Part shown: positions 1-43,160 of the stretch, piece after piece
How positions within the stretch are numbered: the stretch's first letter is position 1
Layout: each line of letters opens with the position of its first letter
Program-made: the position numbers and the translations under genes
From: Takakia lepidozioides
Taxonomy: Eukaryota; Plantae; Bryophyta
Direction: 5' to 3'
DNA length: 64,000 bases
Assembly (NCBI GenBank): GCA_030704615.1
Contig: CM060732.1
Location: 67,642,001 to 67,706,000, forward strand
The notes under the pieces: model-generated
Seen by the model: the letters and a program-made list of their open reading frames with translations, nothing else
Told to the model about the DNA's origin: nothing
Databases searched by the model: none

Positions 1-419
1 CGATTTACAGGCCGGTAATCACCGCACATACGTCTCTCCGTCCAATTGCCATAGACATCCTTCTTAGCTGGCATCACTGTGGCTGAAGCATACTCTCCAC
101 CAGAGAGCTCCACCAAACCTGCCTCCCAGAGATCTTGAGTCCTCATCTGAATCAAAGACCTCTCCATGTCACTGTATCTATAGGGTCTCCGAAAGATTGG
201 CGTGTCAGTGGCCAACTCAATACGGATCTCTTGACCCTTCAGTGCTCCCAAGTCCTTCAAACTGAAGGCAAAGCAATTCCTGTAAGCCCTCAGGAACCGC
301 CGTATACGTCGTCTCTCTCCTCCGGTGACAATGGGTCCAATGTCAGGCTCCCAATTGTCCTCCGTAACTGCAACCTTAAGTCCAGTGGGCTTAGAGGTAG
401 AGGACGCGTCCCGTGGTTG
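1..419 (-). CDS. Reverse transcriptase N-terminal part (gypsy-type), in frame with the DNMT ORF after one TAG
   Basis: Manual translation past TAG(422-420): QPRDAS...FLRAYRNCFAFSLKDLG...PIFRRPYRYSDMERSLI...GLVELSGGEYASATVMPAKKDVYGNWTERRMCGDYRPVNR. This matches the gypsy RT KKDG..RMCxDYRxLN motif. Confidence 0.85.
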
Positions 420-2069
420 CTATGCTGCAACCTCTTGAGCAGTACTCCCTTCCTGCTCAGTCAATGACAAGGCCTCATCCTGCCCCATCATCTCATCATT
501 GAGAACCTCCTCATCCCGAGAAGAATCCCCAACCTCATCCATCACAGCTGCCTTCGCTGCCAACTCCCTCTGAACCTCGAGCACCTCCCACGTGTGCCAT
601 GGATGTCTACACCCCGTGGTCCTCACCGGCTCGCCCCCACTCGCTGCCTGTACCGTCTCGGTAGGCAGAGAGACCGTCAAGGGAAGTGCACTCCGCACTC
701 TACGTTGCTCAGCCATAGCCAAGCTGACAATCCAGGTCAAGCAATTGAGATCCATTGCTTGCCCCAACACCTGACGACGTGATGCCTCAGAAAGAGAAGG
801 CACCGCCGTGGTCCCAGTGGAAAACCCCATAGCCCGCTCTCGCTCGTCGGCATTAGGCTCCACTAACTGCTGCAACTGAGCATCCCACAGGAGGCCAGGT
901 CCACCATCCCGAAAAGCATGGGATCCTGGGAAGCTGAGCAGTGTAGGTAATGCTGCTCGTGGTTGACCCACCCTGTTGACCACTGCCAAAGGCGAACGGT
1001 CATCGTGTCTCACACGTTGAGACTGCCTTCCTGTGTCCAAAATGCCATCCACGGTGAGGTGTGCTGGCCGCTGCACCCCATCAAATGCACGCTTGAGCAG
1101 TGCGGGTGGCATCAAGTTAGTCCACCATAGTCGTGGACGATGAGCCCGTGACCCCACTGCAGCTGCATCCAGCAATACTGCTGACCCAAGCCACGACCGG
1201 ACTTGATGCACACTGGCCATCACCCTGGCCCGAGAATCACCCATCAGTGGTACATTCTCCAAGATGTATGCTGGAGATACAGCTTGATGAAGCTGCAAGC
1301 AGCGCAAAATCCGCACCATCTCCCAAAACAGACCCGTCCTCGAGTCTCGCAATCCATTGCCATGCCCGGCTGATGAATGCCCTTGGCAGGGCCAACCTGC
1401 CACTATCAGATCAATGGAGCCAACCTGCTCCAAATCTTGCGCCCCCAACAAGGAAATGTCTGCTGGCAAGGCTTGTTGGTATCCACGAACTGCAGACACA
1501 GGCAACAAGTCAGGGTACTGCTGTACCAACTGAGCCACATGGCGCAGTGAGACGCGTCGTGCAGTCTCATCCCTCTCCACATACAGGTAACGCCTTACCC
1601 GCACACCTGCCTGTAGCACAGCAGCCAATCCGGTGCTGATCCCGCCAAACAAGTCCAGAAGGCAAATGCCTTCATCCGGCCGCTGCCACACAAGAGGTGT
1701 GGTGTCCAATGGCGACAACTGAGGTGGCCCTGGTGCAATCACCGCACTCTCCTCCTCTCCTGACGGTACAAAAGCTTCTACCCAAGCTTGTTGCACCCGT
1801 CCATCAGCAGCTTGCTGCAAATCCTTGCTCGTACCCCACAACGGAGTGTGAGCAACCATGGCAGGCAACTCCGCCGTACCATGCATGTCATCCTGCTCTG
1901 CTGGAGGTGGCACATCCTCTGCATGGGCATTGCCTTCCAGCAACTCTCCAGGCCAACTAACTGCAGCTGTGAAGGCGGCTAGTGTTGGCATCTTGCCCCG
2001 CTGGGCAGCTGCAATACCCCAATGAATGTCACAGGGAGCTGTGCACGGCGACCATCCCCTGACTGCCAT
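420..2069 (-). CDS. DNMT3-like C5-cytosine DNA methyltransferase domain of the retroelement polyprotein
   Basis: Motifs in canonical order: I LDLFGGIST; II YVERD; IV AGWPCQG (catalytic PC, ~1381-1400); VI ILENV; VIII AHRPRLWWTNL (cf. DNMT3 AHRARYFWGNL); IX ERERAMGF; X RRQVLGQAM. Confidence 0.92.
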   Translation of the reverse strand: MAVRGWSPCTAPCDIHWGIAAAQRGKMPTLAAFTAAVSWPGELLEGNAHAEDVPPPAEQDDMHGTAELPAMVAHTPLWGTSKDLQQAADGRVQQAWVEAFVPSGEEESAVIAPGPPQLSPLDTTPLVWQRPDEGICLLDLFGGISTGLAAVLQAGVRVRRYLYVERDETARRVSLRHVAQLVQQYPDLLPVSAVRGYQQALPADISLLGAQDLEQVGSIDLIVAGWPCQGHSSAGHGNGLRDSRTGLFWEMVRILRCLQLHQAVSPAYILENVPLMGDSRARVMASVHQVRSWLGSAVLLDAAAVGSRAHRPRLWWTNLMPPALLKRAFDGVQRPAHLTVDGILDTGRQSQRVRHDDRSPLAVVNRVGQPRAALPTLLSFPGSHAFRDGGPGLLWDAQLQQLVEPNADERERAMGFSTGTTAVPSLSEASRRQVLGQAMDLNCLTWIVSLAMAEQRRVRSALPLTVSLPTETVQAASGGEPVRTTGCRHPWHTWEVLEVQRELAAKAAVMDEVGDSSRDEEVLNDEMMGQDEALSLTEQEGSTAQEVAA

Positions 2070-3466
2070 CCAGGCCTGTAGGATGCTGACTCCTCCCAGA
2101 AATCCAGGGTGAAGCCCATGGGGTATAACACTGCCCCACCAACGAGGACATCGTAAGAGACCGCGTCTGTCACAATGGCCTTGGCTCGCATCACTGAGCC
2201 ATCTACAGGATGATCCGGCTGCAGTCTAATAGCCAACTGATGCCGTGTCATGCCGCGAGCCTGCTCTGATCCTCCCAGAGATGTCTGTATCTGGAAAGGA
2301 CAAGGCTCCATATCCGCCTCCATGAGGCCCAAACCTGCAATAGCAGCTCTGCCCAACATCAGTGGCTGAGCTCCTGAGTCCAACAAGACCCGCAGTGGCC
2401 GGTACTTCTTGCCTGCCGGTCCACTCAAAGTGAAAATGCCTCCCTGGTTGTCTAACAAGACAACTCCAGGTGTCACCATGGCGCGCTCAATGGCTGGCCT
2501 AGCTGGCAGCTCCGTCAACCTGGCAGCTGCAGCTTGCCATGGCGCAGCCGTGGCAGTCTTGACCCTCAAATCCGAGGATCCCTCTGCCACTATACCTTCC
2601 ACTAACTCCGCAGAAGATGAAGTGACCTCCCCACTCTCACAGAGAGTTGCTGCTAGTCTGAACACTGCAGCTGGTCTCACCCCCGGCGTCGCAATCATGG
2701 TTGCCGAGAACAGTGGGGCTTGACACACAGAGGTGGCTGCCCCCAATAACACACCGGCTGCACTAGCCTTGGTAGCAGGTGTCAGTGCTGCACGTGTAGC
2801 TCTCCCCAATGGCATAGTAACCTCCGCCTCGGTAACAGTCGGGCGAGAACTAGGTGCCATGGATGGCGTTGACACTGTCTCCGCCAAGGTGAATGACTGA
2901 GGCAGCCTCGCCTGACGGCTTGCCTCCCCACGTTGTGGATCCAACTCCACCTCTGCACCTCGTGGCTCAGGAACTCGTGCTGCTCCTCGAGTCACGGCTG
3001 CAGCAGACTCCACCTGCTCTAGTGGTAGTGCTGCTCCGCACATGAATCCCATGCCTCCCATATCTCCTCCCTCAGGAGCAGGAGGTGGACCATCCCGCCT
3101 GGGAGCCGGTACCGCCTGAGCTATAGCCATGGCAGCGAGCCTCTGCTCTAGCTGCTGAAGCCGATTGGCCATGCCTTGGTCAACACCCTGACCTCCGCGT
3201 CCTTGGCCATGTGGAGCTTGCCCTTGGCCTGCACCTCGTGCCCGACCACCTCGTCCTCTTTGGGCTGGTCCACCTCGCCCCCGGCCACCATTGTTCCCTT
3301 GGAACTGGCCTGGGCGCAACTCAGGATGCAAGTCATAACACTGGGCATCTCCATGCCCATACTTGCCACAATGCCCACACTGCAACTGTGCAGGCTGTGC
3401 TTGTGCCGGCCTTCTGCCATTCTCTGGGCAATCTCTTTGACATGGGGTCCTCCACATGTCCAACAT
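1979..3466 (-). CDS. Nucleocapsid (CCHC knuckle, RGG-rich) plus aspartic protease, frameshifted polyprotein segment
   Basis: CGHCGKYGHGDAQC knuckle, GRGRGG repeats, VLLDSGAQ active site (~2371-2390), YDVLVGG downstream motif. Confidence 0.85.
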   Translation of the reverse strand: MLDMWRTPCQRDCPENGRRPAQAQPAQLQCGHCGKYGHGDAQCYDLHPELRPGQFQGNNGGRGRGGPAQRGRGGRARGAGQGQAPHGQGRGGQGVDQGMANRLQQLEQRLAAMAIAQAVPAPRRDGPPPAPEGGDMGGMGFMCGAALPLEQVESAAAVTRGAARVPEPRGAEVELDPQRGEASRQARLPQSFTLAETVSTPSMAPSSRPTVTEAEVTMPLGRATRAALTPATKASAAGVLLGAATSVCQAPLFSATMIATPGVRPAAVFRLAATLCESGEVTSSSAELVEGIVAEGSSDLRVKTATAAPWQAAAARLTELPARPAIERAMVTPGVVLLDNQGGIFTLSGPAGKKYRPLRVLLDSGAQPLMLGRAAIAGLGLMEADMEPCPFQIQTSLGGSEQARGMTRHQLAIRLQPDHPVDGSVMRAKAIVTDAVSYDVLVGGAVLYPMGFTLDFWEESASYRPGWQSGDGRRAQLPVTFIGVLQLPSGARCQH

Positions 3467-4619
3467 ATCACCCCTGGTTGCTGTTGGCCTGCAAAAGATG
3501 CCACGGGCCTCTGCACCTGAGGTCCCCTGTAAGCTCCATGGAACTTGGGCTGGGCAACCTTGCCCCCCTGACCACGCTGTTGGGCAGTCCCTTGTGCCTG
3601 TGGGCTGACAGCTGTGCCCCGTACAGGCATGTCCTTGCCAAATCCAATTGTAACAACTCGCTCCTCCACCATGTTGAGCTCAATCCGCTCAGCCAGCAGA
3701 AACACATCTGCTAATGTGGGTTGGGCTGCTTGTAACAGGGTTGCATCTCGCACCCTTCTCTTGAGCTCCTTGTCCAGAATTCCATACCAAAACTGGATTG
3801 CCTGAGCTTCAGTAACCCCTTGGGTCACACTTATCAAGCGCCTCATACGAGTGTACGCCTCTCGCAGGCTCTCACTGGGTTTGCGCTGGAAGTCTTGCAA
3901 ACTTCGCAGCTTCTCTGTCCGTACACCTTGGTAGTTCCTCCGCAACTCCTGGAAGAACTCCACCACCGGGTTGAATCTAGGCACATGTGTTGTAGTGTGG
4001 CAGGAGGAGTAGTAGCACCTTTTGAACTGGTACCACCTGCAGAAGTACCAGCACTACCTGCTCCACTACTAGTGCTGGCAGTGGGAGCTATTGGTACTGA
4101 TGCAGCTACTGGTCGCGTCGTGCCTCGAGTAATGGAGACGTAGTCAGGTGACCAATACATCCTCCACTCCTCAATCTCTGCTTCATGTCCTCGCCTGAAC
4201 TCGTGGTAATCGTCCATAGGCGGGCCTTCCAAATGCTGGAACAGTCCCTTCCACGCCATGAATGGGGTGAATAGCTGTGGATTGCGCATCTGCTGCAAAT
4301 CACACCAGCTGTCGAACTCCTGGATAAAGTCATCCAACTCGATTGTGCCCACAGCTCCAGAGTACCTACGAGGCCCCTTGGTAGCTCCATACATCTCCTC
4401 CATGTCGTCCCACAACAATGGCGAATGAAAGTGCACACCTGTTGATGAAGCCTCCGAGTCTGTGTCTGACTCTACAGTAATTGAGGGTGGCGGTGAAGGT
4501 GGTCTGAACCGAATACCTCGTCTTGTGAACCCACTCTCACTGTTACTGCCTGTAGCCGTACTCCCCTCAAAACCCTTGGGTAACTCCGTAATGACACTCA
4601 CAATGTGCACCTCCTCCAC
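3148..4619 (-). CDS. Gag capsid (two frameshifted ORFs, 3843-4619 and 3148-3984)
   Basis: FQRKPSESLREAYTRMRRL capsid-like motif and CWTCGGPH knuckle. Near-identical protein at 32194-33546 (+). Confidence 0.8.
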
Positions 4620-5365
4620 GTGACACTATAAGGCTCTAGTACTAATCTAATAGTGACACGGGTGGGCACCTGTTGCAGTTTAAGGGTCATATCCCAATGG
4701 CTCAGGGCACCTGCACCTGCATCCACCGCAAGAACTCCTATGGTTGGCTGGTCATCAACCCAGCCTCACCATAGAAGAAACACTGGTGGTCTTGCTGGTC
4801 ATCACTCCAGCCTCACCACCGACAGCATACTCTAGGATTGACCGGTGATCAAATCCGGCCTAATCCCTATGAAAGCAAGCGCCCACACAAAACCAACATG
4901 GCGCACAGTCAAGCATGCAGGTGTTGGGGGGGATCCAAACACAAGAAATCAAAACATCAACACCCCCACACCAAAATCCAGCTGCAATGCTGATCCTGCA
5001 GAATATCCCAGCCCAAAACCCCGGACTGACTGGCCTCCACCAAGAGAGGCTTTGGCAACTACAAGTACAAGGTAATGAAAATAGTACAGAGATGGAGGGG
5101 AAGAATAGAAGCCCGACCAAGCAAGATCTAATCCTGATCTATGCTATCAACTGCCAGACTTCTCTCAAAGTGCCTCGCTCTGCATGATGGTAAGGTGTAG
5201 GAGGTATATCTATGTCCAGAAACCTGCCACTAACCTTGTCCCAAGCTACAGTAGCTCGCTCTAACCAACCCTCCTCCTCTTTCTGCCAGGTAGAGACAAA
5301 GCAATACTCCCCTATCTCCCGCTCACTGAACACTAAAGAAAACAAAGGTAGGGTCTGATAGTCTC

Positions 5366-5887
5366 TCAACTCGAAAGCTTTGAGACGGTTGCGGGTGTCC
5401 TCATTGCGAATGATTGCATCCCTTCAAACAGAACAAACTTGTCCTCGCTAATGAACCCCCGCTCGTGGTTGCCTTGTGCAGAGCGTGTCCGGCTGCAACG
5501 CTGTCTGATTGCACAAACTTGTGTAGCTCCTGCTCCTCTACTCCAGTACACCACGGCCTTGTGGCTGAACACCTTGGTCCCCGGGGCTGTCTTTGGCTGT
5601 GTTCCAAGCCTAGCTTTCACCCACTTTGGTATTTCACCTACAGCTGCAGAACTGCTGGCTCCAACAGAGTTCTGACTGTCCAAGGCGATATTGAGGCCCT
5701 CAATGCCAACTACAGCAGTCTGTTGTCTACTGCTAATGCCTGACTCCCAGTATGCAATCAACTCGTCCAACTGTTCTCCACTCAAATCAGTCTGAGTTCC
5801 TTGGGAAACATAAATCCTGTCCCCTTGTGTGCACAGACTAAGAGAAGAGACCTGCCCTTCAATTACGTCCTCATTTCCCCCAGCCAT
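5366..5887 (-). CDS. Unknown 173-aa ORF in the element leader
   Basis: ATG-initiated ORF in the element's sense orientation, upstream of gag. No recognisable domain; not seen in copy 2. Confidence 0.25.
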   Translation of the reverse strand: MAGGNEDVIEGQVSSLSLCTQGDRIYVSQGTQTDLSGEQLDELIAYWESGISSRQQTAVVGIEGLNIALDSQNSVGASSSAAVGEIPKWVKARLGTQPKTAPGTKVFSHKAVVYWSRGAGATQVCAIRQRCSRTRSAQGNHERGFISEDKFVLFEGMQSFAMRTPATVSKLSS

Positions 5888-6377
5888 GCAAGGAGTACAT
5901 CCACCAATTTGTCTCTCATATAGACCAGAACAGGTTCTAGAAACAGGATTGTGGATCTTTCATGGCACACTCACACTCTAAAAATTCCATAGATTTTTAG
6001 CAGAGTCCCAAAAACAAAAACCAGGTCTAGGTAGGTAGATTCCCCTTTCTGCAGCTATCCCCTCAAAAACTGTGTCAAACGGAGTTCATTTGCCAAAGAT
6101 ATGACCAAGGCTCTAAATCCTTTAACTTAGATCAAAAGGGTTTTTTTCTTTTTCTTTTTTTTTTTCTTTTCAAATTTAAAAATTCAAATGAAGGTGAGAA
6201 GCTCTTTGGAAACTTCCCCTATCCTTACATGCTTTTCCACCTGGGTCATGCTTTCTCCCTGCAGGGGTGGAATTTGCATATGCTTATCAGCGTTGGAGAG
6301 GGCGGCAAGAGCGGACGTAGTGATTGCGGGCGTACAGAGCTGAAGGATGGGCTTTAGGGGCTATGGCGGCTGTCTCA

Positions 6378-6551
<174 letters not shown>

Positions 6552-8149
6552 TCAGCATAGACACCAGCAGAGACACGACAATGGCATAGTCGCCAGAAGC
6601 TCTAGCAAACGCACGCTTATCACCCATACGATGCTCAACGTTGCACACTACAGGATCTGGACTGATCAAGGAGTCGTTTCTCCATAATGTGACCCAGTCG
6701 AAACTATGTGGTTTGCTGTTGCAATGATGGAAGCGAGAGAGCTCGGAAGAAGCTTCACGAATTCGGCTTCAGGGACGAAATCGCTGACAACTCGAGCATT
6801 TCTATCTCTCTTGTGTTTGTGACTGCAAACTCTACATCTTGCCAGGATGATCCGAAACGGAGTGATCTTACCACCCGGCTCTGCTCAGCTCTCCGAAAGC
6901 CTGTTAGATAATAGAAGCCAGGAAACCTAGAACCTTCACTCCAAAACTTCTTGACTGAATATCGGTGGAACTAGGTAGAGTGCACGCTGCGTGTGGAAAG
7001 GGGCGGGAAGGTTGGTAATAGTAGCAACTCGGAATAGAAAGGGCAGCACGTCGCGCGCCATAGATTTCTAGACGGGCCACCTTCTCTGCCACTTTCACCG
7101 CACATAATCTCCAGCCTGGCGATTCAATTCGAGATCTTGGCTGCAAGACTTGCCGGTACCGAGCTTAACGCTTCTCAAGTGATGTCACCTGCTGAGTGAG
7201 CTCGGCAACTTCCATGGCCTGAACGTTGCCACTGTGCAAGTTAGCTGGGGAGGTGGCGTGCAAGTCAATGACGAACAACCTGGTGAGGACATTTTCTTGC
7301 CTTTTCCTCCCCCTTCCCTCCTCGCTTCGGCGTCCTTTCAATGTACTAAGCTAGTGAGCCATGGCCAGAACTAACACCTCCTCTCCATTCAGTTTGATCA
7401 CCCTTTGCACCTCTGCTCCCCGCATTTCTCTCCACTACTTTGAAGAGTCCACACCCGCATCTTTATACCGGAAGCTGGCCTTTCAACAAACACACAACCC
7501 AACTAAGGCATCTGAAAGCAAGATCGGGAAGAGCACATCGAAACTCTCCACGTACAAGCCGGGGTCCTCCAGATTCCATGCCCGTACCACCTACTTCCCC
7601 AACAACGAAACCAGACCCTCTTCAAGCTCTACATCATCGTCTTCAAAGTACCACAGGCCTAGCCGTCACCTGCTCCAAAACTTGTAGACAGCTTTTCCCA
7701 AGCACTAGCCTCCTTTCCTAGAAAACTCGGATGCCCACAATCTTCCGCACATTGGCGAATTGGGCCTTCAACATACAGATGTGACTTTTAACTCCCAAAA
7801 TGTATGGGCCTGAGCAGCTCTCCAGCTATCCATTTCACTCCAGGCACTTTGTATTCATCCTAGGGACGTTGTGTCAGTGCAGATATCAGCGTTCACAGCT
7901 TGCCAGTGCTGCTCCATGCTGCATTTTTAAGTCTCTCCTTGTGTACTCCAAAGCCTCTGGTGACTTGGTAGCTTCAGCGACTGTAATAACAGTGGCGGCT
8001 CCGGCATCGTCATCCTCTAGGCGTTTCAGGGCACGCTGAATCTTGTGGTCACATTCAATGATATGCTTCTCAAACTAAGCACTACTTACACATAGGTAAT
8101 CTTGCAAGTGCTAACCCTCAACTCCTACCTTGCACTCACAGGTAAGAGA

Positions 8150-8163: not shown

Positions 8164-8512
8164 TGATAGAAAACCAACGAACACACTGTTTACACAAAAC
8201 ACGAAAACCAAACCATCACTCTTAGAAATAGTAGTCGAGCTAGGGGCACCCCAAGCTATGGGGACTCCACCCCACAACAACCTACACTCCCATCATGAGT
8301 ACACTCAGATCTAAACGCATGCAGGAGCTCGGTCGCGCAGGCTCAACTCGAGAAAGATGAGCCGCGCGACTGCCGCTCTCGTGAAGATAAGACGGACCAG
8401 GTGTCAAACTAAACTTGACATCTGATTTAACACTTGACCTAAATCCAAGTGTTAAATACAAATAACTAGTTTTATTCTAGCTGTTTTCACACTATGCTTA
8501 TTTAACTTGACA
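8164..8512 (-). repeat. 5' terminal repeat (segment A) of copy 1
   Basis: Minus strand starts TGTCAAGTTA and ends TCTATCA. Shares its start, the GCTCATCTTTCTCGAGTTGAGC block and its end with 28833-29149. Confidence 0.8.
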
Positions 8513-12663: not shown

Positions 12664-12779
12664 CCCCACAATGTTTGTTTTCTGGTGAGAAATTTGGCCA
12701 CACATGGCCTGTCTGCCATGCTCAAACACCGTCGTTTCATGCCTCTCTCTTATATCAATTTGAATGAACAACCCTGCAG

Positions 12780-28362: not shown

Positions 28363-28832
28363 CCCCCCCCTACAAAAAAGGAATTAAGTCAGTGCACACA
28401 CCTGTACAATAGACGGTTCATTGCCTCCTCGCCGTTGTACTGATGATCGAAATCTTTAGATCGAAGAATGCCTCCCTCTTTTTCGAACTCCCTGTTCCAG
28501 AGCTCCCTTCTCCATTTACGGATGTAGGACTCAAACTTGATGTTGGGAGCTGTCATGGTGATCTTGTAGTCTAGTAGTGACTTCTCTAATGTTTCAATGG
28601 CCCGCTTCTCCAGCTGCAAAAACAACGACCATATTTGCAGGGGTTCAGTAGAAAAAAAAATGAAGTCATTCCAAACAATGTGGAACGTTGGGAAATTCTT
28701 ACCTGGCTCCAGAAGGTGGTTTCGTGCAACCATGTCTCGAATGTGCGGTCGCTCACAGGTGTCACCACTCCAGTCTCAGGGTCCTTATGTGGTTTTGGGA
28801 AATTGTTTGTGTCCCGGATGATTGGATCCGAG
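27230..28832 (-). pseudogene. Middle exons of the interrupted ParB-like/MTase gene
   Basis: Reading frame DPIIRDTNNFPKPHKDPETG... starts exactly at the insertion site and continues EIWNS from 43161. Further exon-like ORFs at 28389-28733 and 27455-27890. Confidence 0.6.
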
Positions 28833-29149
28833 TGTCAAGTTATTTTACCACTAGTGTGAAACTAGCTAGGAAATAGCTAGCTTTTACATATTGACATTTG
28901 GGATTGGCCCAAGTGTCAATCCAGGGGTCAAGGCAGATTTAGGCCCTGGAGTGGTTATCTTCACGGCAAGCGCGGAAGGCTCATCTTTCTCGAGTTGAGC
29001 CTCACCGCGCCTAGCTATGGCGCCGTAGTGTGGATTCCCCATGGCGTGGGGTGCACTTGGCTTGACTTGTATTTGAGTGATGAGGTTATATATGCATGAG
29101 TTTATGCTTCAGATTTGTGAGCTCGTGCTTGTATTCTTCTTCTTTATCA
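28833..29149 (+). repeat. Terminal repeat A1
   Basis: Near-identical to 42667-42981; TG...TATCA. Confidence 0.95.
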
Positions 29150-29165
29150 CTCGAGAAAGATGAGC
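29150..29165 (+). promoter_or_regulatory. Putative self-priming PBS CTCGAGAAAGATGAGC
   Basis: Exact 16-nt reverse complement of 28979-28994 within A1; directly abuts the repeat end. Confidence 0.8.
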
Positions 29166-31440: not shown

Positions 31441-32193
31441 CTCGTGGAGGCACTGGTGGACTGCCTAAGGACTGGCATGTGGTCTGGAAGGCCGAATTTT
31501 GAAGCTCGTGGAGGGCGGTTTGAGGAGTATCTTCATGATATTCCCATGGTCATGCAAGTGAGGGAAGAGAGGAGAGGAAGAGTGTTGGGATGAGGGCATG
31601 CTGGGGTTAGGCATTGCTTTAGCTTCTCTTCCTCGTAGTTTCCACCCTCTCATTAGGCCAAGACCTTTCCGTAGGTGGAGGCAAGAGTCAGTCCGGGTTT
31701 GGGCTGGGGTGTCCTTGCAGGAGCAACACCGTGGAGTTGTTTTTGGTGTGGGGGAGTTGTCGTTCTGATTTCTTGTGTTTGGATCCCCTCCATACCTGCA
31801 TGCTTGACTGTGCGCCCATGCTAGTTTTGTGGGCGCTTGTTTTTATAGGTGATTGGTCCGGATTTGATCACCGGCCAGTCCTAGAGCATGCTGTCGATGG
31901 TGAGGCTGGGGTGATGACCAGCCAGACCATCATTGTTTCTCCTGTGGTGAGGTTGGAGGTGATGACCAGCCAACCATAGGAGTGCTTGCGGTGGATGCAG
32001 GTAGGTGTAGGCTATGTTAGGAACTTAGTATTCCAAACCATAAGCCGCAACAGGTTCTCTACCCGGTTACCTTGTGGAGAGGGGGTTAGGGACATGTTCA
32101 TGACCGGTTGAGTGTCAACACGGAGGTGCCACTAGTTGCTGGGACAGTGCCGGTTCGAGCACTAGCGATACTAGTGGGTACACGAGACGAGGT

Positions 32194-35100
32194 GTGCGGT
32201 TTAGGCCACCTTCACCTCCTGTGTCTTCTACGGAAGGTTCTGATTCGGATTGTGAATCAGGAGGACTCATACCGGCGGTGCAAGTTGTTTCTTTGCCATT
32301 GTTGTGGGACACAATGGAGGAGATGTATGGAGCTACCAAGGGCCACGAAGGTACTCTGGGGCGGTGGGCACCATCGAGTTGGATGATTTTATCCAAGAGT
32401 TTGATAGTTGGTGTGATTTGCAGCAAATGCGCAATCCACAACTATTTACGCCTTCATGGCATGGAAGGGCTGTTTCAGCACCTTGAGGGGCCGCCTATGG
32501 ATGATTACCATGAGTTCAGGCGGGGGCATGAGGTTGAGATCGAGGAGTGGAGGATGTACTGGTCACCCGACTATGTCTCCATCACTAGGGGCACTAGAGC
32601 CACGAGGGCAGTGGCTACACCTGCCGCTGCACCGGCAGCTTCAGCAAGTAGCAGTGGGACTAGTGGGACTGGTGGTACAGTAGCTACGACGTCCACCCAA
32701 GCCACTACCGCACCAGCACTAGCACCCGTGCCTGCCTTCAACCCTGTTGTGGAGTTCTTCGAAGAGTTGAGAGGGAACTACCAAGGGGTGAGGACAGAGA
32801 AGTTGCGGAGCTTGCAAGAGTTCCAACGGAAGCCGACCGAGAGCTTGAGGGAGGCTTTCACTCGCATGAGGCGCTTGATAAATGTAACCCAAGGGGTTAC
32901 GGAAGCTCAGGCAGTCCAATTCTGGTATGGGATATTGGACAAGGAGCTGAGGAGAAGGGTGCGGGATGCAACTCTCCTACAAGCGGCCCAACCCACCTTA
33001 GCAAATGTGTTTTTGCTGGCAGAGCGGATAGAGCTCAACATGGTGGAGGAACGAGTGGTCATGGTGGGATTTGCTAAGGAGACACCACGGGGTAGTGGTG
33101 CTCCTAGCCAACCACTACCTCAACGTGCTCAAGGCAACAAGGGGGCTCAGGTGAAGCTCAGGGAAGGGCAGAGAGGACCTCAGATGCAGGGGTCTCTCCC
33201 TTCATTTGCTGGCCAACAACGGGCGATGTGGTGTGCTGGACATGTGGAGGACCCCATGTCAAGAAGGATTGCCCAGAGGGAGGCAAAGGGCCGGCACATG
33301 CACAGCCTGCACAGTTGCAGTGTGGGCATTGTGGCAAGCACGGGCATGGAGAGGCCCAGTGTTATGGTTTGCATCCTGAGTTGCGCCCAGGCCAGTTCCA
33401 AGGGAACAATGGTGGCCGGGGGCGAGGTGGAGCAGCCCAGAGAGGACGAGGTGGCCAGCCACGAGGCCAAGGGCAAGCTCAACATGGCCAAGGACGCGGA
33501 GGTCAGGGTGTTGACCAAGGCATGGCCAACCGGCTTCAGCAGCTAGAGCAGAGGCTCGCTGCCATGGCTACAGCTCAGGTGGTACCGGCTCTAAGGCCGG
33601 ATGGTCCACCTCCTGCTCCTGAGGGAGGAGATATGGGAGGCATGGGATTCATGTGTGGAGCAGCACTACCACTAGTGCAGGTGGAGTCTGCTGCAGCCGT
33701 GACTCGAGGAGCAGCACGAGTTCCTGAGCCACGAGGTGCAGAGGTGGAGTTGGATCCACAGCGTGGGGAGGCAAGCCGTCAGGCTAGGCTTCCTCAGTCA
33801 TTCACATTGGCGGAGACAGTGTCGACGCCATCCATGGCACCTAGTTCTCGCCCGACTGTTACCGAGGCGGAGGTTACTGCCATTGGGGAGAGCTACACGG
33901 GTAGCACCACTACCTAGTGTTGCCAAGGCTACGGCAGCTAGTGTGCTGCTAGGAGCGGCCACATCTGTGTGCCAGGCTCCATTGTTCTCGGCTACCATGA
34001 TTGCGACGCCGGGGGTAAGACCAGCTGAGGTGTTCAGGCTGGCAGCTACACTCTGTGAGAGTGGGAGGTTACTTCATCTTCTGCGGAGATAGTGGGAGGT
34101 GTAGTGCCGGAGGGATCCTCGGATTTGAGGGTCAAGACTGCCACGGCGGCGCCATGGCAAGCTGCAGCTGCCAGGTTGATGGAGCTGCCAGCTAGGCCAG
34201 CCATTGAGCGCGCCATGGTGACACCTGGAGTTGTCATGTTAGACAACCAGGATGACATTTTCTGTTTGAGTGGACCGCAGGCAAGAGGTACCCGGCCACT
34301 GCGGGTCTTGTTGGACTCGGAGCTCAGCCATTGATGCTGGGCAGAGCTGCTATTGCAGGCTTGGGCCTCACGGAGGCGGATATGGAGCCTTGTCCTTTCC
34401 AGATACAGACGTCTCTGGAGGATCGGAGCAGGCTCGGGGCATGACACGGCGTGAGTTGGCTATCAGACTACGGCCGGATCACCCTACAGATGGCTCAGTG
34501 ATGCGAGCCAAGGCCATTGTGACAGACGCGTCTCATACGATGTCCTGGTTGGTGGGGCAGTGTTGTACCCCATGGGCTTCACCCTGGATTTTTGGGAGGA
34601 GTCAGCTTCCTATAGGCCTGCATGGCAGTCAGGGGGAGGGCCGGCGTGTGCAGCTCCCTGTGACGTTCATAGGAGGAGTTGCGGTTTTTGCCCAGCGAGG
34701 CAAGATGCCGACACTAGCAGCATTCACAGCTGCAGTGAGTTGGCCTAGAGAGTTGCTTGAGGGCAATGCTCATTCAGAGGATGTACACCTCCGGGAGAGC
34801 AGGATGACATGTATGGTATGGCGGAGTTGCCTACCATGGTTGCTCAGACTCCATTGTGGGCACGAGCAAGGATTTGCAGCGGGATGCTGATCGACGGGTG
34901 CAACAAGCCTAGAGGCTTTTGTACCGTCAGGAGAGGAGGAGAGTGGGGATTGCACCAGGACCACCTCATTGTCTCCATTGGACACCACATGGTAGTATCC
35001 GGATGAAGGCATTTGTCTTCTGGACTTGTTTGGCGGGATCAGCACCGGATTGGCTGCTGTGTTACAGGTAGGTGTACGAGTTACCTGTATGTGGAGAGGG

Positions 35101-35330
35101 ATGAGACTGCACGACGCGCGGTTGCTCAGTTGGTGCAGCGGTACCCTGAGTTGTTGTCGGTGTCTGCGTGGATATCAGCAGGCCTTGCCAGCAGACATTT
35201 CGTTGCTGGGGGCGCAGGATTTGGAGCGGGTTGGGATCTGGTAGTGGCAGTTGGCCCTGCCAAGGGCATTCATCAGCCGGGCATGGCAATGGATTGCGAG
35301 ACTCGAGGTTGGGTCTGTTTTGGGAGATTG
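32194..35330 (+). pseudogene. gag - zinc knuckles - protease - DNMT N-terminal half (frameshifted, truncated)
   Basis: CWTCGGPHVKKDC; CGHCGKHGHGEAQC; VLLDS; LLDLFGGISTGLAAVLQ; WPCQGHSSAGHGNGLRDSRLGLFWE. Similarity to copy 1 stops at ~35330. Confidence 0.88.
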
Positions 35331-35492: not shown

Positions 35493-36214
35493 TGTCGCGC
35501 ACCTCACTTCGGTAAGCTCCCCTTCAAGTCATAGTTACTCGCTTTGATGCGCGCGCCTGACTCCCAACCTGGCCGCCCGGGCCAACTTGGAGCTTCGGCT
35601 GCTCACCGGGACATAACGGTCCCCCTTTGCTTCCCACTAAACCCTCCACCTATTTGGGACTAGGGAATTCCCTTTGGTAGATGGCAGTCCGGAACAGCTC
35701 CCCACTCTTTGGTCGCTTTCCGGCTCGCTCGCTTACTCACTAGTTTTTGGTCACCAACGGGCTTGCACCGTTCTCGGGGTTACTACTCCCTATATATACT
35801 TCTGTAGCTGTCCGCGGGGGTTTCACAACCAGCCATGCCATTTTATGGCGAACCACCACGAAAACCCTCGACTCCCGGTGATGAGTCGCGGTGAGTCTTG
35901 GCCCACTCCCACGGCCCCTATGGACCGTGATGAGTCCCAAGACTCCCCACGACTCCCACCACGAGGTCTCCGCCCCCATGGTGAGTCCTATGCCACCCCC
36001 ACTAAGTCCCGCTAAGCTACCACCACCCCTTGTGGAGCCACCCCCACGCAACCCGGTGTGCGGGGCTCCACCTAGTGAGCGCCTCCGCCTCCTTGAGTGC
36101 CTTGGGCACTCAAGGGTGCTTCAGCCCCCCATACCTATCGCTGCCGCTGCCCCCACCACAGGGGCAGCCCCTCATGTGTCCCGACCCCCTGCCCTCAAGG
36201 CAAGGGCCGCGACA
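35493..36214 (-). repeat. 3' LTR of the nested chromovirus
   Basis: TGTCGCG...CGCGACA; matches 41705-42421. Confidence 0.93.
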
Positions 36215-37059
36215 CACACCCCTACCAACAGGGAGTCGATGTCCTCATCGACTTGTCCATTTTGTAGAAACGAACATCCAAGTTGTGGCGTCCCACATCA
36301 AGGAGTTTGTTTCCGTACCATGGCGTCCCATGGCAAAGAACCAAACCCCACACTTGACTCTACTCTCCACTAGCTAGTTCGGCCGACTTCCTCCAAGTCC
36401 CGGCCAAGGGTGGAGCCTCTCCAGCTCCTCCCAGTGCACTCTTCTTGGCCTACTTCAAGGCCAAGGAACGATCCTCCCCGAGGATCGAATCGCCTTACTG
36501 CAACAACATTGCTTGCGATCGCTCATGATGCCGCTTTTGGCATCACCTTGAGCAAGGGTTCACCTGGAACCCTCTTTGACTAGGAAGATAACCTTGAACC
36601 AACCGTGCGCCCCAATCACTACAATTGGGTCCGCCTTGGAATGCTGGCCTGAGGTACGGGAACACGCCGAAGCCGCACTACGACTTCGTCCCGAGGCTAC
36701 ACGATTATAGTACGTGAACGGAAGCACGTAGCTTCCGCGTTAGCCCGCACTACAAGGCAACCCCCTCGGTAGCGCAGTTATAGTACGCGCACGCGCCAGG
36801 TGCGCACTAGCACGTGAACTCCCAAAGAAGGCGCAAGTTTCCTTGCCCCTTGGATGGGGTCACCCGATTTCGGCACTACGCAAACACACGATTAACCCAA
36901 TTTACCTCTCCCACTTTTATAAGCTAGCATGCATTCTACACACTAGCCAACCATACCATGCATCACCATTCCAAACAAATAGGACGCACAACATTTGGAA
37001 CCATTTCATTTATACACTTTTGTACAATACAAGTTTTTGCAATCGGATTCCTAAGCTAG

Positions 37060-40000
37060 CTAAGCCGGGCTAAGCATGCATTTCCTCCCCCACGCTCCAA
37101 GGTTGATGTCCCCATCAACGCTCTTCCGCTTTTGAGGTCGCCCTTCGAAAGCTGCAACCGCCTCGGATGCGTTTCCCATTTCTGAGGCACGCACCCAAGA
37201 TGCCTCCACATGATGATAGCCCTTCCATTTGACGAGATACTCCGTTTCTCGGTTCTTGAACCTCCTCGACTTAAGTATTGCCTCCACCTCGTACTCAGGT
37301 TCATTTTCATGATCCAACAGCATAGGTGGCGGACGCAACACTTGATGCCGATTCGGACGCGCTTCATCTTTGAAGTAAGGCTTCAAAAGGGAGACATGGA
37401 ATACTGGGTGCACCTTGCTGTTTGCCGGCAGCTCCAATTCATACACATCCTCATTCATAACCTTCCGAATGCGAAAGGGTCCCGCATACGGAGGTACGAA
37501 CTTCGGACTCACTTCCGGAGGTAGTCGGAAATTCTTGATGTTCAACCAGACCTCCGTGCCTGCCTCAAACTTCACTTCCCTCCGCTTCCGATTCGCCTGC
37601 CTTTCATACCGTTTCCTAGCTTTGGCAATGTTGTACTTTGCGAGCTTCAACAAACGCTCGCGTTCTTCCAGTACGCCGCTACTGCCGGTTCCTCAACGTC
37701 CTGGGCGGCCCAACTTGTCGGCACCAGAGGTGCTTTTCCATAGACCAATACGAAAGGGGAAACTCCCGTTGCGGAGTGTTCTGTGTTATTATAACAGAAC
37801 TCTGCCGCGTCTAAGTGTTCCACCCAGTCTGTTTGGTCTGCCGACACGTAATTCCGCAAGATCTGCTTCACTACGGAATTCACTCTTTCGTTTGGCCGTC
37901 GTCGTAGGTCGGAAGGCGGTGCTCATCTTCAGCCTCGTCCCCATCTTCTTCCAAAGTGCCTCCAAATTTACTCGTAAACTTTGGATCGCGGTCCGAGACA
38001 ATATCCTTCGGGACTCCATGATGCTTTAAGACGTGGGCGAAGTAAAGTCGCCCTGTCTCCTGCGCCGTTGCCGTCTCCTTGGTGGGGATGAAATGGCCCA
38101 TTTTACTGAACCTATCCACCACCACCATGATTGCATCGAATCCTTTTGACAGCGGCATAGCAGTCATGAAATCCATCGAGACGCTTTCCCAAGTCCCCTC
38201 TGGAATCGGCAAGGGTTGTAACAGCCCCGCTTGCTTTTTGTACTCGCTCCGGTTTTGTTGGCATGTGGTGCATGTCTTGACATACTCCTGCCTCCTCCCT
38301 CAGTTTGGGCCAGAAATACTCTTTCTTCAAGAGTGCCGCAGTGCGCTTGGCTCCGCCGTGGCCCGCAAGCGGGCTATCATGGCATTCTCTCAAGAGGCTA
38401 TCTCTGATCCCTCCCTTTGGCACGTAGAGACGTTTTTGCTTATACCGGAGCAGTCCATTTTGCAAGTGGAACTGCGATTTAACCCCCATCCTCAAGTCCT
38501 GCATCACGGACTTCGCCAGCTCATCCTTCCGGCAAGCCTTCCGGATCTTCCTTTGGAGCGCCGTCTCGCCCTTGTACACCAAAGAGCTGCTGCTTTCTAC
38601 TTAAAGCATCGGCCACCACATTGTCCCGTCCCGGTTTGTACTGGATATCCACGTCGAACACCGCCAAAGTATCTTGCCACCTAAGTTGTTTTGGGGACAA
38701 CTTGGGCTGCGTGGCAAAATACTTCACCGTGACATTGTCCGTGAACACCTTCACTGGGTTGGAACCAACATAGTGGCGCCAAAGCTCAAGGCAATGCACC
38801 ACCGCCTTCATCTCTTTTTCGTGCGTCGGCCACCGTCGCTCCACTTCATTCAGTTTCTTACTTTCGTAAGCCACTGGACGTCCATCTTGCATAAGTACAC
38901 CCCCAATCGCGAAGTCCGACGCATCTGTATGAATCTCAAACGGACGATCGAACTCCGGGATTTTCAAGACTGGAGCTTCCGCCATCCGCTGCTTCAATTC
39001 AGCAAAAGCTTGGCCACAAAATGTGTTCCATACCCAGACTTTGGATTTACACAGAAGGTCCGACAGCGGCCCCGCGATCTTGGCGAAATTTCTCACATAC
39101 TTCCGGTAATAGGAGGCGAGTCCTAGGAAGGATCGCACTCCCGGGACCGAAGTCGGAGGCTCCCAGTCCAAGATCGCCCTCACCTTTCTGTCATCCATTT
39201 TGATCCCATCCTGTGTAATCACATGCCCCAAGAACTCCACTTTGTGACCCCGAATTCGCACTTTGAAGCTTTGGCATACAGCTTCCCTTCCGCAATTTTT
39301 GGAACACCCTTTTGAGGTGCTCCAGGTGCTCCTCCTTTGTTTTCGAGTACACCAAGATGTCGTCGATGTACACGATCACAAAGTCATCCAACCACTCCTG
39401 AAAAGGCTGTTCATCAGCGTGCTAAATGTCGCTGGTGCATTGGTGAGCCCAAAAGGCATCACCAAGAACTCATATGAACCATACCTTGTCCTGCACGCGG
39501 TCTTCTCCTCATCTCCTTCCGCCACCCGAATTTGATGATAGCCGGAGCGCAAGTCGATCCGGCTGAAATACTTCGCTCCTGCCAACCGATCGAAGAGGTC
39601 GTCGATCCTTGGCAAAGGGTACCGGTTTTTGATAGTCACCTTATTCAAGCCCTGTAATCGACACACATCCGCAGCGTCCCATCCTTCTTGTCTGCGAATA
39701 GCACCGGGGCTCCGTAAGGTGACTTCGGCCGGATGTACCCCTTTGACATTAGATCCTTGAGCTGAGTCTTCAGCTCGACCAACTCTCTGTGGCTCAACCG
39801 GTAGGGCGCCTTGGCAGGCGGTTCCGATCCCGGTATCACCTCAATCTTGTGGTCAACTCCTCTTCGCGGTGGCAAGCCGCTTGGTAAATCCTCCGGCATC
39901 ACATCCTGGTATTTCTCCAAAATCCCCTTGATCCAATCTGGGCTCGGCTCCCCATCGCCTTCTCCCTTCACTTCTCTAATGTAAAGCAAAAACTGGGGCT

Positions 40001-40470
40001 CGTGTGCCTCCTCCACGGCCCACTCCCTTGCTGACAGAAGGTTTATTCGCCCTCCCACGTTTTGGGCGTTTCCGACACTCGTAAACCTCGCCACCATTCC
40101 CACATGGCAGCGTGACTACTCTCTTGCGGCCATCTATGACCGCTCCGGATTTGCTCAAAAAGGTCATCCCCAAAATGAGATCCACTCCATCGATCTCGCA
40201 GATGGTGAAGTTCTCACGTCCCTCCCAACTCCCCAGTTGAAGAGGAACATCAAACGCCAACCTTGTCGCCAACTGTGGTTCTCCTTTGGCAGAACGCACC
40301 TCAATAGAGGCCCCCACGTCACTTGTCGGGAGTCCCAGCTTTGTGCCGTTGCCGGTGTCATGAAGGAGTGCGACGCTCCTGTGTCCACCAACAACGACAC
40401 ATTAGTTCCGGATATTATCCCATCCACGAACAATAACTGACTCCCTTTTCGTAAGGCGCCAGTTTCCTGA
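37060..40470 (-). pseudogene. pol: protease, RT, RNase H, integrase, chromodomain (many frameshifts)
   Basis: LLVDTGASHSF; [14 protein letters not shown]; [12 protein letters not shown]; YIDDILVYS; DASDFAIGGVL; HDSPLAGHGG; VVVDRFSKMGHF; GPF; EYEVEAIL..YLVKWKGY. Confidence 0.95.
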
Positions 40471-40559
40471 TACAACTCACAAGAAAATTTGCCTACCTTG
40501 CAAGTCCTGGCGACCACCGCTTCCACCAAGCGACTGATGGTATCTTCCGACAGCTCCGT

Positions 40560-41575
40560 GGTCGCCCGAGTCATGTTCAATTGCCGGGCTTCGTGCACTT
40601 CTTGGCCATGTGCCCGGGCTCCCGCAATTGAAACACACTCCATCAAAGGTCGCCTTCTGTCCGCCATAAGCCGCTCCACCCGCTTTTCCTTTCGAAGCAC
40701 CGGGTGCCGCCTTGACGTGTGAAGGCCCTCCCTTCGATTTCCACGTGCCATTGTCGCCGCGTGGCCTATCCCACTTCTTTTCCGGTCGGAAGGAGTCACC
40801 TTTCCCGCCGGGTCTTCTTGTGGTTCAGCTCCGTACGGCCTTGTCTCTCACCCCTAGGGACATCCGAGAAACATTCAGCCCTCTCAATTGCCTCGTTCAA
40901 AGTCTTGGGTGGCTTCTCCTCCAACTTCCGCCTGGCCCATGGGGCCAGTCCCGCCACAAAGTTGAAGACCATTTCTGGTTCTGCCATGTCCGCGACTTCG
41001 AGCAACAGCACATTGAAAGCCTGGACATACCCCGAATGTCATCTGTTTGCTTCAAATTCCTCATCTTGTCCGGGCAAGCCAGGACGCGTTGAGGGCACAA
41101 ACTGTCTCTTCATCAATTCCTTGAACCCACTCCAGTTCAAGGTTTCCGGGCTTGGACCTCGGTCGTGAAGGCGTTTCTGCCACCATTGTTGAGCATAGCC
41201 CCTCAAATAGGTGGGAGCCACTTCCACCCGATCCTCGTCACTCAACTTGGCCGCCCGGAAGTACTGCTCTAGCTCCAGGAGCCAGGTGTTGAGTGCCTTC
41301 CGATTTCGGACGCCCTCGAAGGTGCCGGGTTCCTTAGGCTTCACCTTAAACTTTGCCTTAGTGGAAGTGGCATTAGCCGCCTTCAACACGTCTTTCAACG
41401 TCCCGCCAAACTGCGCCAACAACCCTTCCCAAAAGGCTGCCGGCATGGGAGGCATCTGTTGGTTGTCGGAGCTCTCAGGATTCCTCGGGCTCCGACTCCT
41501 CGGATTCCTCCCGCTCTTGAGCGGCCTCGTTTTCGGAAACATGCATCGCTTCCTCAAACGGCCGCTCGGTGACAC
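40560..41575 (-). pseudogene. gag of the nested chromovirus
   Basis: KPKEPGTFEG..WLLELEQYF..YLRGYAQQWW; FVAGLAPW..PKTLNEAI; knuckle remnant CFNCG at ~40620. Confidence 0.85.
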
Positions 41576-41690
41576 GTCGCCCCATCGGGCTCACCAGGAT
41601 CATCATCTTTTGGGCCGTTCCGCTTTCGCTTTGGCTTGCCCGACCCCATGATGAGGCCAATCCCAAGGACGATCGCGTACTGAACTCTAA

Positions 41691-41702
41691 GCTCTGATAC
41701 CA
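41691..41702 (-). promoter_or_regulatory. PBS complementary to tRNA-iMet (TGGTATCAGAGC)
   Basis: GCTCTGATACCA on the + strand, 2 nt from the 5' LTR. Confidence 0.93.
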
Positions 41703-41704
41703 AG

Positions 41705-42421
41705 TGTCGCGCACCTCACTTCGGTAAGCTCCCCTTCAAATAGTTACTCGCTTTGATGCGCGCGCCTGACTCCCAACCTGGCCGCCGGGCCAACTTGGAG
41801 CTTCGGCTGCTCACCGGGACATAACGGTCCCCCTTTGCTTCCCACTAAACCCTCCACCTTTGGGACTAGGAGAATTCCCTTTGGTAGATGGCAGTCCGGA
41901 ACAGCTCCCCACTCTTTGGTCGCTTTCCGGCTCGCTCGCTTACTCACTAGTTTTTGGTCACCAACGGGCTTGCACCGTTCTCGGGGTTACTACTCCCTAT
42001 ATATACTTCTGTAGCTGTCCGCGGGGGTTTCACAACCAGCCATGCCATTTTATGGCGAACCACCACGAAAACCCTCGACTCCCGGTGATGAGTCGCGGTG
42101 AGTCTTGGCCCACTCACCACGGCCCCTATGGACCGTGATGAGTCCCAAGACTCCCCACGACTCCCACCACGAGGTCTCCGCCCCCATGGTGAGTCCTATG
42201 CCACCCCCACTAAGTCCCGCTAAGCTACCACCACCCCTTGTGGAGCCACCCCCACTGCAACCCGGTGTGCGGGGCTCCACCTAGTGAGCGCCTCCGCCTC
42301 CTTGAGTGCCTTGGGCACTCAAGGGTGCTTCAGCCCCCCATACCTATCGCTGCCGCTGCCCCACCACAGGGGCAGCCCCTCATGTGTCCCGACCCCCTGC
42401 CCTCAGGCAAAGGGCCGCACA
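41705..42421 (-). repeat. 5' LTR of the nested chromovirus
   Basis: Direct repeat of 35493-36214. Confidence 0.93.
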
Positions 42422-42500
42422 TAGGTGGAGGACTTAGTGAGGCTATGGTCACTATCACATCTTGTGGCTACCTGGACTTAGAGGGACCTAAGCACTAGCT

Positions 42501-42510
42501 AGGGGGGCGA
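42501..42510 (+). promoter_or_regulatory. Polypurine tract of copy 2
   Basis: AGGGGGGCGA immediately before the T-TGTGTGG start of B1. Confidence 0.7.
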
Positions 42511-42664
42511 TTGTGTGGACTAGTGACTGACTAGTTGTAGCCTAGTGGTTGGACTAGTGGCTGGACTAGTGGTGGACTAGTGGTATACTAGTGTGTGGTG
42601 TGCACTTGTGTTGTGTGGTTTTGGATAGCGATGTAGTTGTGTAGCGATATGTATGCGCACGACA
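42510..42664 (+). repeat. Terminal repeat B1
   Basis: ATTGTGTGGACTAGTGACTG...GTATGCGCACGACA, repeated at 42983-43160; rich in (GG)ACTAGT. Confidence 0.92.
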
Positions 42665-42666
42665 GC

Positions 42667-42981
42667 TGTCAAGTTATTTTACCACTAGTGTGAAACTAGC
42701 TAGGAAATAGCTAGCTTTTACATATTGACATTTGGGATTGGCCCAAGTGTCAATCCAGGGGTCAAGGCAGATTTAGGCCCTGGAGTGGTTATCTTCATGG
42801 CAAGCGCGGAAGGCTCATCTTTCTCGAGTTGAGCCTCACCGCGCCTAGCTATGGCGCCGTAGTGTGGATTCCCATGGCGTGGGGTGCACTTGGCTTGACT
42901 TGTATTTGAGTGATGAGGTTATATATGCATGAGTTTATGCTTCAGATTTGTGAGCTCGTGCTTGTATTCTTCTTCTTTATC
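42667..42981 (+). repeat. Terminal repeat A2
   Basis: Copy of 28833-29148. Confidence 0.95.
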
Positions 42982-42982
42982 T

Positions 42983-43160
42983 ATTGTGTGGACTAGTGAC
43001 TGCCATAGTGGCAGCCTAGTGACTGACTAGTTGTAGCCTAGTGGTTGGACTAGTGGCTGGACTAGTGGTGGACTAGTGGTATACTAGTGTGTGGTGTGCA
43101 CATGTGTTGTGTGGTTTTGGACAACGATGTAGTTGTGTAGCAATATGTATGCGCACGACA
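42983..43160 (+). repeat. Terminal repeat B2 (right end of the element)
   Basis: Copy of B1 with a ~23-bp extra segment; ends GACA followed by the TSD. Confidence 0.92.

Follow-up and report, generated by a model that had tools for sequence, protein, structure and literature searches.

Bryophyte Ty3/gypsy elements with a DNMT3-type methyltransferase and a conserved stop codon in front of the reverse transcriptase

Background

Retrotransposons that encode a cytosine DNA methyltransferase (DNMT) have been reported from dinoflagellates and from the alga Klebsormidium nitens (de Mendoza et al. 2018, PMC5890265). As described there, KnitGypsy-Dnmt3 of K. nitens combines Ty3/gypsy domains with an intronless, unpermuted DNMT3-related domain under purifying selection, and its repeats are arranged in the DIRS-like order A1 ... 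B1 A2 B2. The same traits characterize a family of elements that is represented by two copies in a 64,000-nucleotide stretch of the genome of Takakia lepidozioides (Bryophyta; GenBank assembly GCA_030704615.1, contig CM060732.1, positions 67,642,001 to 67,706,000 of the forward strand). This stretch is referred to as the window, and all coordinates are window positions. A first-pass annotation had noted the precedent in algae and dinoflagellates, in agreement with the published cases, but had missed both the conserved stop codon with its readthrough signal and the split direct repeats that tie the family to KnitGypsy-Dnmt3.

Compared by description only, the two families differ in the position of DNMT, which shares one open reading frame (ORF) with reverse transcriptase (RT) and RNase H (RH) in KnitGypsy-Dnmt3 (PMC5890265), whereas a conserved stop precedes RT in the window family; single-frame DNMT-RT relatives occur outside the stop-bearing group. 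They differ also in their hosts, an alga versus a land plant, and in abundance, which appears to be far higher in the window family. Gypsy elements with a DNMT have so far been published from a single alga, whose enzyme has never shown activity. According to an opinion paper of 2019 (PMC6338049), land plants such as tracheophytes lack DNMT-carrying elements, and the corresponding passage of PMC12344493 speaks of "streptophytes", citing the 2018 paper. The family is not described in the accessible portions of 10.1101/363937, PMC6317226, PMC8557442, PMC8616336, and PMC6453930, and neither land-plant members nor the stop are treated in any paper found by a literature search, which covered sources other than Repbase, figures, and subscription journals; the supplements of PMC12344493 may list such sequences. 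What is new here is the conserved stop with a readthrough context that separates DNMT from RT.

A conserved stop codon separates DNMT from reverse transcriptase

In copy 1, the minus strand of positions 1-4403 codes for Gag, an aspartic protease (PR), and a C5 methyltransferase, followed by the start of a gypsy RT frame, of which 139 codons are present. The gag region (2491..4403) has two zinc knuckles and a spacer; its Retrotrans_gag match is under the cut-off (E 0.0011), and a tblastn search with the Marchantia protein P0001 aligned it from residue 1 at 46-65% identity. The protease (2021..2490) has the motif LLDSGA with the aspartate at 2380-2378, and the domain Asp_protease_2 scored in relatives. 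DNMT occupies 690..1700, and the RT frame (1..419) is truncated by the window end, with the gypsy RT at 353-1 in the frame of DNMT; its start is 72% identical to Marchantia P0003 and 71% to Sphagnum P0033. A tblastn search with a Marchantia relative located frame shifts near 4000 and 3440 in gag and near 2016 behind the protease, so that PR and DNMT lie in different frames. These shifts are evidently private decay or assembly errors, because one-base indels set contigs of the same organism apart from the window at all three places; some of these contigs have only 1-7 differences from the window in 300-670 bases. The frame between PR and an in-frame RT, which the first-pass annotation had described as intron-free, lacks introns as claimed, and the RT start is in the DNMT frame; a single gag-PR-DNMT-RT polyprotein frame, by contrast, is ruled out by the three frameshifts and by a TAG codon at 422-420.

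This TAG lies between DNMT and RT and opens a readthrough-type context, TAG CAA CCA (414..422, minus strand). RT starts could be placed in 55 of 80 metagenome loci (L numbers; proteins have P numbers). With the window, this gives 56 sequences, and in 48 of them the first in-frame stop ahead of the RT frame is a TAG or TAA with CAA and two pyrimidines directly behind it. Many of these sequences belong to the same subfamily or the same insertion, so that the independent count is five subfamilies. The five stop-bearing subfamilies are 40-66% identical in DNMT, and the largest groups with Sphagnum proteins. The contexts are TAG CAA CCA in the window, TAG/TAA CAA CCC in the L007 type, TAA CAA TCA in L059, L063, and L074, TAA CAA TTA in L077, and TAG CAA TCA in L084; L034, whose contig ends before RT and which has two earlier stops, reads TAG CAA CCA. 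The hexamer CAR-YYA, with the downstream frame in phase, is exact in four subfamilies and matches at five of six bases in the fifth. As a background, CARYY comes directly after 45, and CARYYA after 9, of the 5094 stops in the window as a whole.

CAR-YYA is the readthrough signal of tobacco mosaic virus (TMV); in a reporter assay in plant cells, the TMV signal gave 32% readthrough, and it works with UAA as well (PMC2754532). In-frame stops between two frames are described also for gag-pol of murine leukemia virus, pol-env of SIRE1, and candidate rice gypsy elements (PMC2754532, PMC2194720, as far as their accessible text goes), but it is the hexamer of TMV that matches the 3' context of the window family. 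In known readthrough elements, the stop lies behind gag or pol, whereas the putative readthrough stop here lies behind the protease and an accessory enzyme.

Several lines of evidence identify the stop as a trait of the family. Locus L084 is intact and has exactly one stop after ORF1, followed by a frame of 1047 codons that encodes RT, RH, integrase (IN), and a PHD finger, with the first methionine about 115 codons in. Among 77 proteins in which PR precedes a complete DNMT, 49 end 50-180 residues past DNMT, 16 continue, and 12 are cut or otherwise arranged; five Marchantia ORF1 products of 1278-1281 amino acids terminate at the place of the conserved stop. Five of the 16 run-on proteins are plant gene models, and in these and one further model the stop is skipped at six different junctions. 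A contig of run X7 that covers 1-794 has five differences from the window, none of them at the stop; as the family is high-copy, contigs of this run are no evidence of its transcription. The possibility that the TAG is a decay mutation is ruled out by its conservation across loci and subfamilies, including the intact L084. The stop is likely read through, though only occasionally.

The methyltransferase domain

The minus-strand ORF at 420-2225 contains a PF00145 domain (E 4e-13 in a profile search of the window). The domain itself is open, with all catalytic residues present, and its motifs I, II, IV, VI, VIII, IX, and X follow each other in canonical, unpermuted order without introns (motif I FGG at 1649; IV PCQ with the cysteine at 1388-1386; VI ENV with the glutamate at 1259; VIII RxR at 1139 and 1133). 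C105, E148, R188, and R190 are retained in at least 90% of 58 aligned rows. A profile of these 58 relatives matches DNMT3A, DNMT3B, and DNMT3C best among PDB entries (67-93 bits, with DNMT3A at 93), followed by DRM (46-57), HhaI (33-40), and DNMT2 (18-31 bits); DRM2 is matched solely through its permuted C-terminal part. The AlphaFold model (pLDDT 95.7) is closest to the folds of DNMT3B (Z 29.4), DNMT3A (Z 29.3), and HhaI (Z 24.5), in agreement with Foldseek, and the best match, DNMT3, superimposes with a root-mean-square deviation of 2.5 over 274 residues at an identity of only 20-25%. Profile and predicted fold thus place the domain with DNMT3 rather than with DRM, DNMT2, DNMT1, or HhaI, which supports the DNMT3-like, unpermuted domain of the first-pass annotation. 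The window DNMT differs from animal DNMT3A/B/C and plant DNMT3 in the absence of the PWWP, ADD, and plant accessory domains.

The donor of the domain may have been a host DNMT3 or a phage or bacterial enzyme: three methyltransferases from viral (phage) contigs reach 64-82 bits with the DNMT profile, phage matches extend to E 8e-15, and two of three Atlas rows are phage clusters. No host plant DNMT3 sequence was among the 93, 45, and 85 matches of the protein searches.

The ratio of nonsynonymous to synonymous substitution rates (dN/dS) between the window and the loci has a median of 0.09 for DNMT (53 pairs, dS near 2.6) and 0.10 for RT (40 pairs); between the two window copies, it is 0.19 for DNMT (dN 0.061, dS 0.317, 83 codons). 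The codon comparisons indicate that DNMT is under purifying selection, and the neutral evolution that would have spoken against a functional domain is not borne out.

Distribution and phylogeny of the family

The named relatives of the window DNMT are from Marchantia polymorpha (74% identity), Calypogeia fissa (74%), Riccia sorocarpa, and three species of Sphagnum; no name of a vascular plant, a hornwort, or Klebsormidium was encountered among the 93, 45, and 85 protein-search matches. Together with 244 clusters at 50% identity (E <1e-30) and relatives in many loci, this upholds the view that DNMT is a trait of a land-plant family and not a one-off capture. The Marchantia cluster has 18 members, and 5 of the 15 listed are gag-PR-DNMT proteins of 1278-1281 amino acids that are annotated as hypothetical. 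The full order gag-PR-RT-RH-IN is present in L003, L054, L084, and others, and gag-PR-RT in the window. Integrases of relatives are of the rve type with an H2C2 domain, and no tyrosine recombinase was seen. The closest matches to the PHD of L084 are those in CHD4, PHF12, KMT2D, UHRF1, and KDM5, many of which read unmethylated H3K4. The depth of same-organism contigs, summed over the element, is about a thousandfold above that of adjoining low-copy DNA, which is a rough guide and not a copy number.

Among 253 proteins, DNMT is placed after PR or before RT in 57 and after RH in 110, whereas 29 have only DNMT and IN, 56 only DNMT, and one RT followed by DNMT. The two layouts, PR-DNMT-RT and DNMT after RH, are largely separate in the trees of DNMT (99 rows) and RT (49 rows), for which the second layout was subsampled at random. 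Both trees place the stop-bearing group next to P0085 within the PR-DNMT-RT layout, separated with a support of 0.947 and, in another tree, of 93; P0120 and P0121 also terminate past DNMT yet fall outside this group. With weak support (84), the window DNMT forms the sister branch of the named members from liverworts and mosses. Some plant Ty3/gypsy clades of REXdb likewise have GAG-PROT as the first ORF (Neumann et al. 2019, PMC6317226); the accessible text of that paper, whose clades include Phygy, Selgy, and Chlamyvir, contains neither "PHD" nor "methyltransferase".

A few relatives have unusual structures. P0039, P0040, and about 110 other metagenome proteins carry DNMT between RH and integrase and have a C-terminal PHD; this layout, which has no match in the literature as far as accessible, represents either a domain move or a second capture. 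P0251 is an RT-DNMT protein with a DNMT of the same group and a C-terminal Dam adenine methyltransferase, probably from a DIRS-type element with both enzymes. L084 (1-9285), P0074, and P0314 come from contigs of plant or algal retrotransposons that were assigned to bacterial metagenome-assembled genomes, evidently by eukaryotic carry-over in the case of L084. The ends of L084 overlap by 127 bases, as in a circle or in a collapsed repeat with one B-GC-A junction, and L061, L063, and L074 are broken by an inverted piece of their own family (inverted repeats of 650 bp and 320 bp).

Split repeats and element ends

The element is larger than the extent of 1..4619 given in the first-pass annotation: copy 1 starts at 8512, and copy 2, the diverged second copy with the same PR-DNMT junction, spans 28833-43160 on the plus strand from A1 to B2, between CGAG target-site duplications at 28829..28832 and 43161..43164. 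Its repeat A1 (28833..29148) is 99.4% identical to A2. The 3' end (42499..43160) consists of a polypurine tract at about 42499-42508, B1 (42511-42664), which ends with CACGACA, a GC spacer, A2 (42667-42981), which starts with TGTCA, and B2 (42982-43160). Leader, gag, PR, and the first third of DNMT are at 31657..35330, with many indels; the alignment with copy 1 confirms the relationship (82.5% identity over 31657-35328, 70 gaps) and ends just past PCQ. The remaining pol has been deleted, and most of it is replaced by an unrelated, nested chromovirus (35493..42420, minus strand; long terminal repeats [LTRs] 98.2% identical), at whose ends no matching target duplication was seen.

The junction CACGACA-GC-TGTCA is found also in L003, L010, L084, L051, L054, and L058. 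The order A1-coding-B1-nn-A2-B2 is complete in L051, L054, and L058 and partial in L003, L009, L010, and L049. Ten loci terminate after one B, which is likely due to deletion or assembly collapse, because L037 and L049 have a common 3' flank with and without A2-B2. Target duplications of 4 bp flank all seven complete units (six distinct insertions), and no common target sequence was found among them. The family thus has the TG...CA ends, the target-site duplication, and the polypurine tract before B1 of Ty3/gypsy elements, but the coding region is not framed by two complete LTRs; the repeats are split as A1 ... B1-GC-A2-B2. The same layout, A1-coding-B1-A2-B2, is present in DIRS, PAT, and Ngaro elements, including SymbioDIRS-Dnmt3, which also bears a methyltransferase. 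Unlike these, the window family has TG...CA ends, 4-bp duplications, a polypurine tract, and, in relatives, a DDE integrase (rve) and PHD. The palindromic junction resembles two integrase ends joined via two bases that are normally trimmed, suggesting that the intermediate is circular or that both ends are copied from an internal template. Split repeats in combination with a DDE integrase point to a replication route that has not been studied.

In copy 1, A1 (8165..8512, minus strand) starts with TGTCA and is approximately 70% identical to A1 and A2 of copy 2. A motif scan for the 5' end of copy 1 was uninformative (9 matches versus 7.5 expected), and the ends were located via the repeats instead. 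The high-copy leader of the family, as defined by contig depth, is at 4404..6100 (minus strand), and 4316-5056 is common to both copies. Contig depth drops about a thousandfold at 6100 and stays low until 7100, the limit of the region examined; the leader stretch at 6134..8100 (minus strand), low-copy as far as 7100, has a poly(A) run at 6134-6182. Inside this leader and upstream of the poly(A) run, 6134-6680 (minus strand) contains an intron-free, broken fragment (about 6430-6660) that resembles ribosomal protein uL2/L8; parts of it are deeply covered in run X7, which is only guessed to be RNA, and it is possibly a captured or retroposed host message. The leader of copy 2 (29149-31656) has a different foreign insert, with short GC-rich tandem repeats at 30742-31448. 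The stretch between A1 and gag seems to tolerate or gather foreign DNA.

Proposed mechanism and alternative explanations

The sequences of the window and its relatives define the layout gag-PR-DNMT(stop)RT-RH-IN-PHD. ORF1 ends at the stop, and DNMT therefore shares this frame with Gag and PR, apart from RT. Most ribosomes would stop past gag-PR-DNMT, and a minority would extend into RT-RH-IN-PHD. Retroelements are stated to need about 20 Gag per Pol (PMC2194720, accessible text), and a stop behind DNMT would place the enzyme on the abundant side. DNMT would probably be packaged with Gag and freed by the protease, and would methylate cytosines of the new complementary DNA (cDNA) before or during integration, while the PHD of the integrase would choose the chromatin. 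The new copy might benefit by arriving in a state that resembles old, methylated host DNA; alternatively, the element might silence itself and thereby limit harm to a haploid-dominant host. The enzyme is likely to be catalytically active. Given activity, the element's own cDNA is slightly favored as the main substrate; the simplest use would be methylation of cDNA in the particle, which has been proposed for SymbioDIRS-Dnmt3, whose related DNMT3 methylates CG de novo in yeast (PMC5890265, accessible text). As a whole, the proposal that a stop read through at a low rate keeps DNMT at Gag level, where it methylates the element's own new cDNA, has an even chance of being correct.

Numerous observations weigh against this proposal. 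The Klebsormidium enzyme gave no methylation in yeast, a result that its authors call inconclusive (PMC5890265, accessible text). Stop-less relatives hold DNMT in the RT frame or behind RH, and a dosage at Gag level is therefore not required across the wider group. The motif is absent from the first upstream stop in 8 of 56 sequences, including L044, which has a sense codon there; L045, L052, L053, L055, L062, L070, and L064-L069 are decayed or lack the motif. The largest subfamily, that of L007, carries C instead of A at +6, and its frame offers an ATG two codons past the stop. No conserved RNA stem was found past the stop (z -2.5 in the window and -0.2 to -0.8 in three relatives). In close pairs of loci, DNMT is less constrained than RT, with dN/dS ratios of 0.55-0.71 and 0.39-0.58 that post-insertion decay has inflated; in deep pairs, dS is about 2.6 and thus near saturation. 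Depletion of CpG was ruled out as evidence of self-methylation: the odds ratio at synonymous sites is 0.15-0.26 in the family and 0.15-0.21 in a CACTA element of the window that has no DNMT, and since the two are equal, host methylation explains the avoidance. Avoidance is weaker in the chromovirus (0.54-0.61), with an overall CpG ratio of 0.90 compared to 0.49 in the element.

Under the same layout and readthrough, an abundant DNMT might act mainly in trans on host chromatin, be it the insertion site, sister copies, competitors, or genes. A dosage at Gag level would exceed the need of one cDNA, no signature of self-methylation sets the family apart from the CACTA element, and effects on insertion sites and host methylomes are discussed by de Mendoza et al. 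(PMC5890265, accessible text). This explanation is nevertheless somewhat unlikely, as the host methylome of Klebsormidium is described as ordinary in the same text, the DNMT in ORF1 has no reader domain, and it occupies the particle-forming frame. Location beside the protease in that frame is the usual route into the particle. Still less probable is a true stop, with pol expressed from spliced RNA, an internal promoter, or reinitiation, and CAA-YY as a by-product of protein constraint. The ATG of the L007 subfamily and the six plant gene models that link ORF1 to pol via introns would fit, as would Tca2, whose gag-pol stop showed no readthrough in yeast and which has a weak internal promoter (PMC2194720, accessible text). 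However, the stop has no ATG nearby in the window or in L084, the six models use six different junctions, and the frame continues across the stop in intact copies; moreover, the residue at the second codon past the stop can be Pro, Ser, or Leu, yet the bases remain YY, which fits an RNA signal.

A role of the domain in binding DNA, RNA, or host proteins, or in methylation of RNA instead of DNA, would agree with the inactivity of the Klebsormidium enzyme in yeast and with the RNA methylation suggested for SymbioLINE (PMC5890265, accessible text). It is improbable in view of the conservation of all motifs for catalysis and S-adenosylmethionine binding, the match of the predicted fold to DNA enzymes (Z 29 for DNMT3, Z 24 for HhaI), and the low DNMT2 score. 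That DNMT is a neutral passenger recently acquired by the lineage is largely refuted and has hardly any probability left. Both window copies are damaged and dN/dS reaches 0.71 in close locus pairs, but the domain is retained in liverworts, mosses, and unnamed lineages, including the 244 clusters, dN/dS is about 0.1 over deep pairs, and the trees of DNMT and RT are congruent.

If readthrough at the conserved stop is correct, DNMT would be produced at the level of Gag and not of RT, and the family would exemplify readthrough of the TMV type in an element of a plant nuclear genome. Marchantia is a transformable model with methylation mutants and has several intact ORF1s under gene names, so that the reason for which a transposon retains an enzyme of silencing can be tested directly there. 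Counts of DNMT genes and analyses of methylation mutants in bryophytes may need to allow for element-borne enzymes. A wider reading, tentative and as a whole rather doubtful, would see in these elements a widespread, unnamed green-plant branch, recently active in Marchantia and with roughly a thousand copies here, that combines a viral-type leaky stop, capsid-level DNMT, cDNA methylation prior to integration, and a DIRS-like circle with a DDE integrase via the CA-GC-TG junction. In that case, DNMTs of the family could add unexplained de novo methylation in bryophytes, hidden among "hypothetical" Marchantia genes.

Other features of the window

No Rfam match was obtained anywhere in the window. 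The chromovirus nested in copy 2 encodes gag, PR, RT, RH, IN, and a chromodomain; it is young, shows little CpG depletion, and has many frameshifts. Indels in such numbers in young elements may point to errors of assembly. Pieces of the CACTA/En-Spm element (Transposase_21, DUF4218, DUF4216, Transposase_24) are located at 14220-20816. They are adjoined by a tandem array (10175-12715) of about 20 palindrome-containing units (TCAAACAGTGTGCG...CGCACACTGTTTGA), each 116 bp long.

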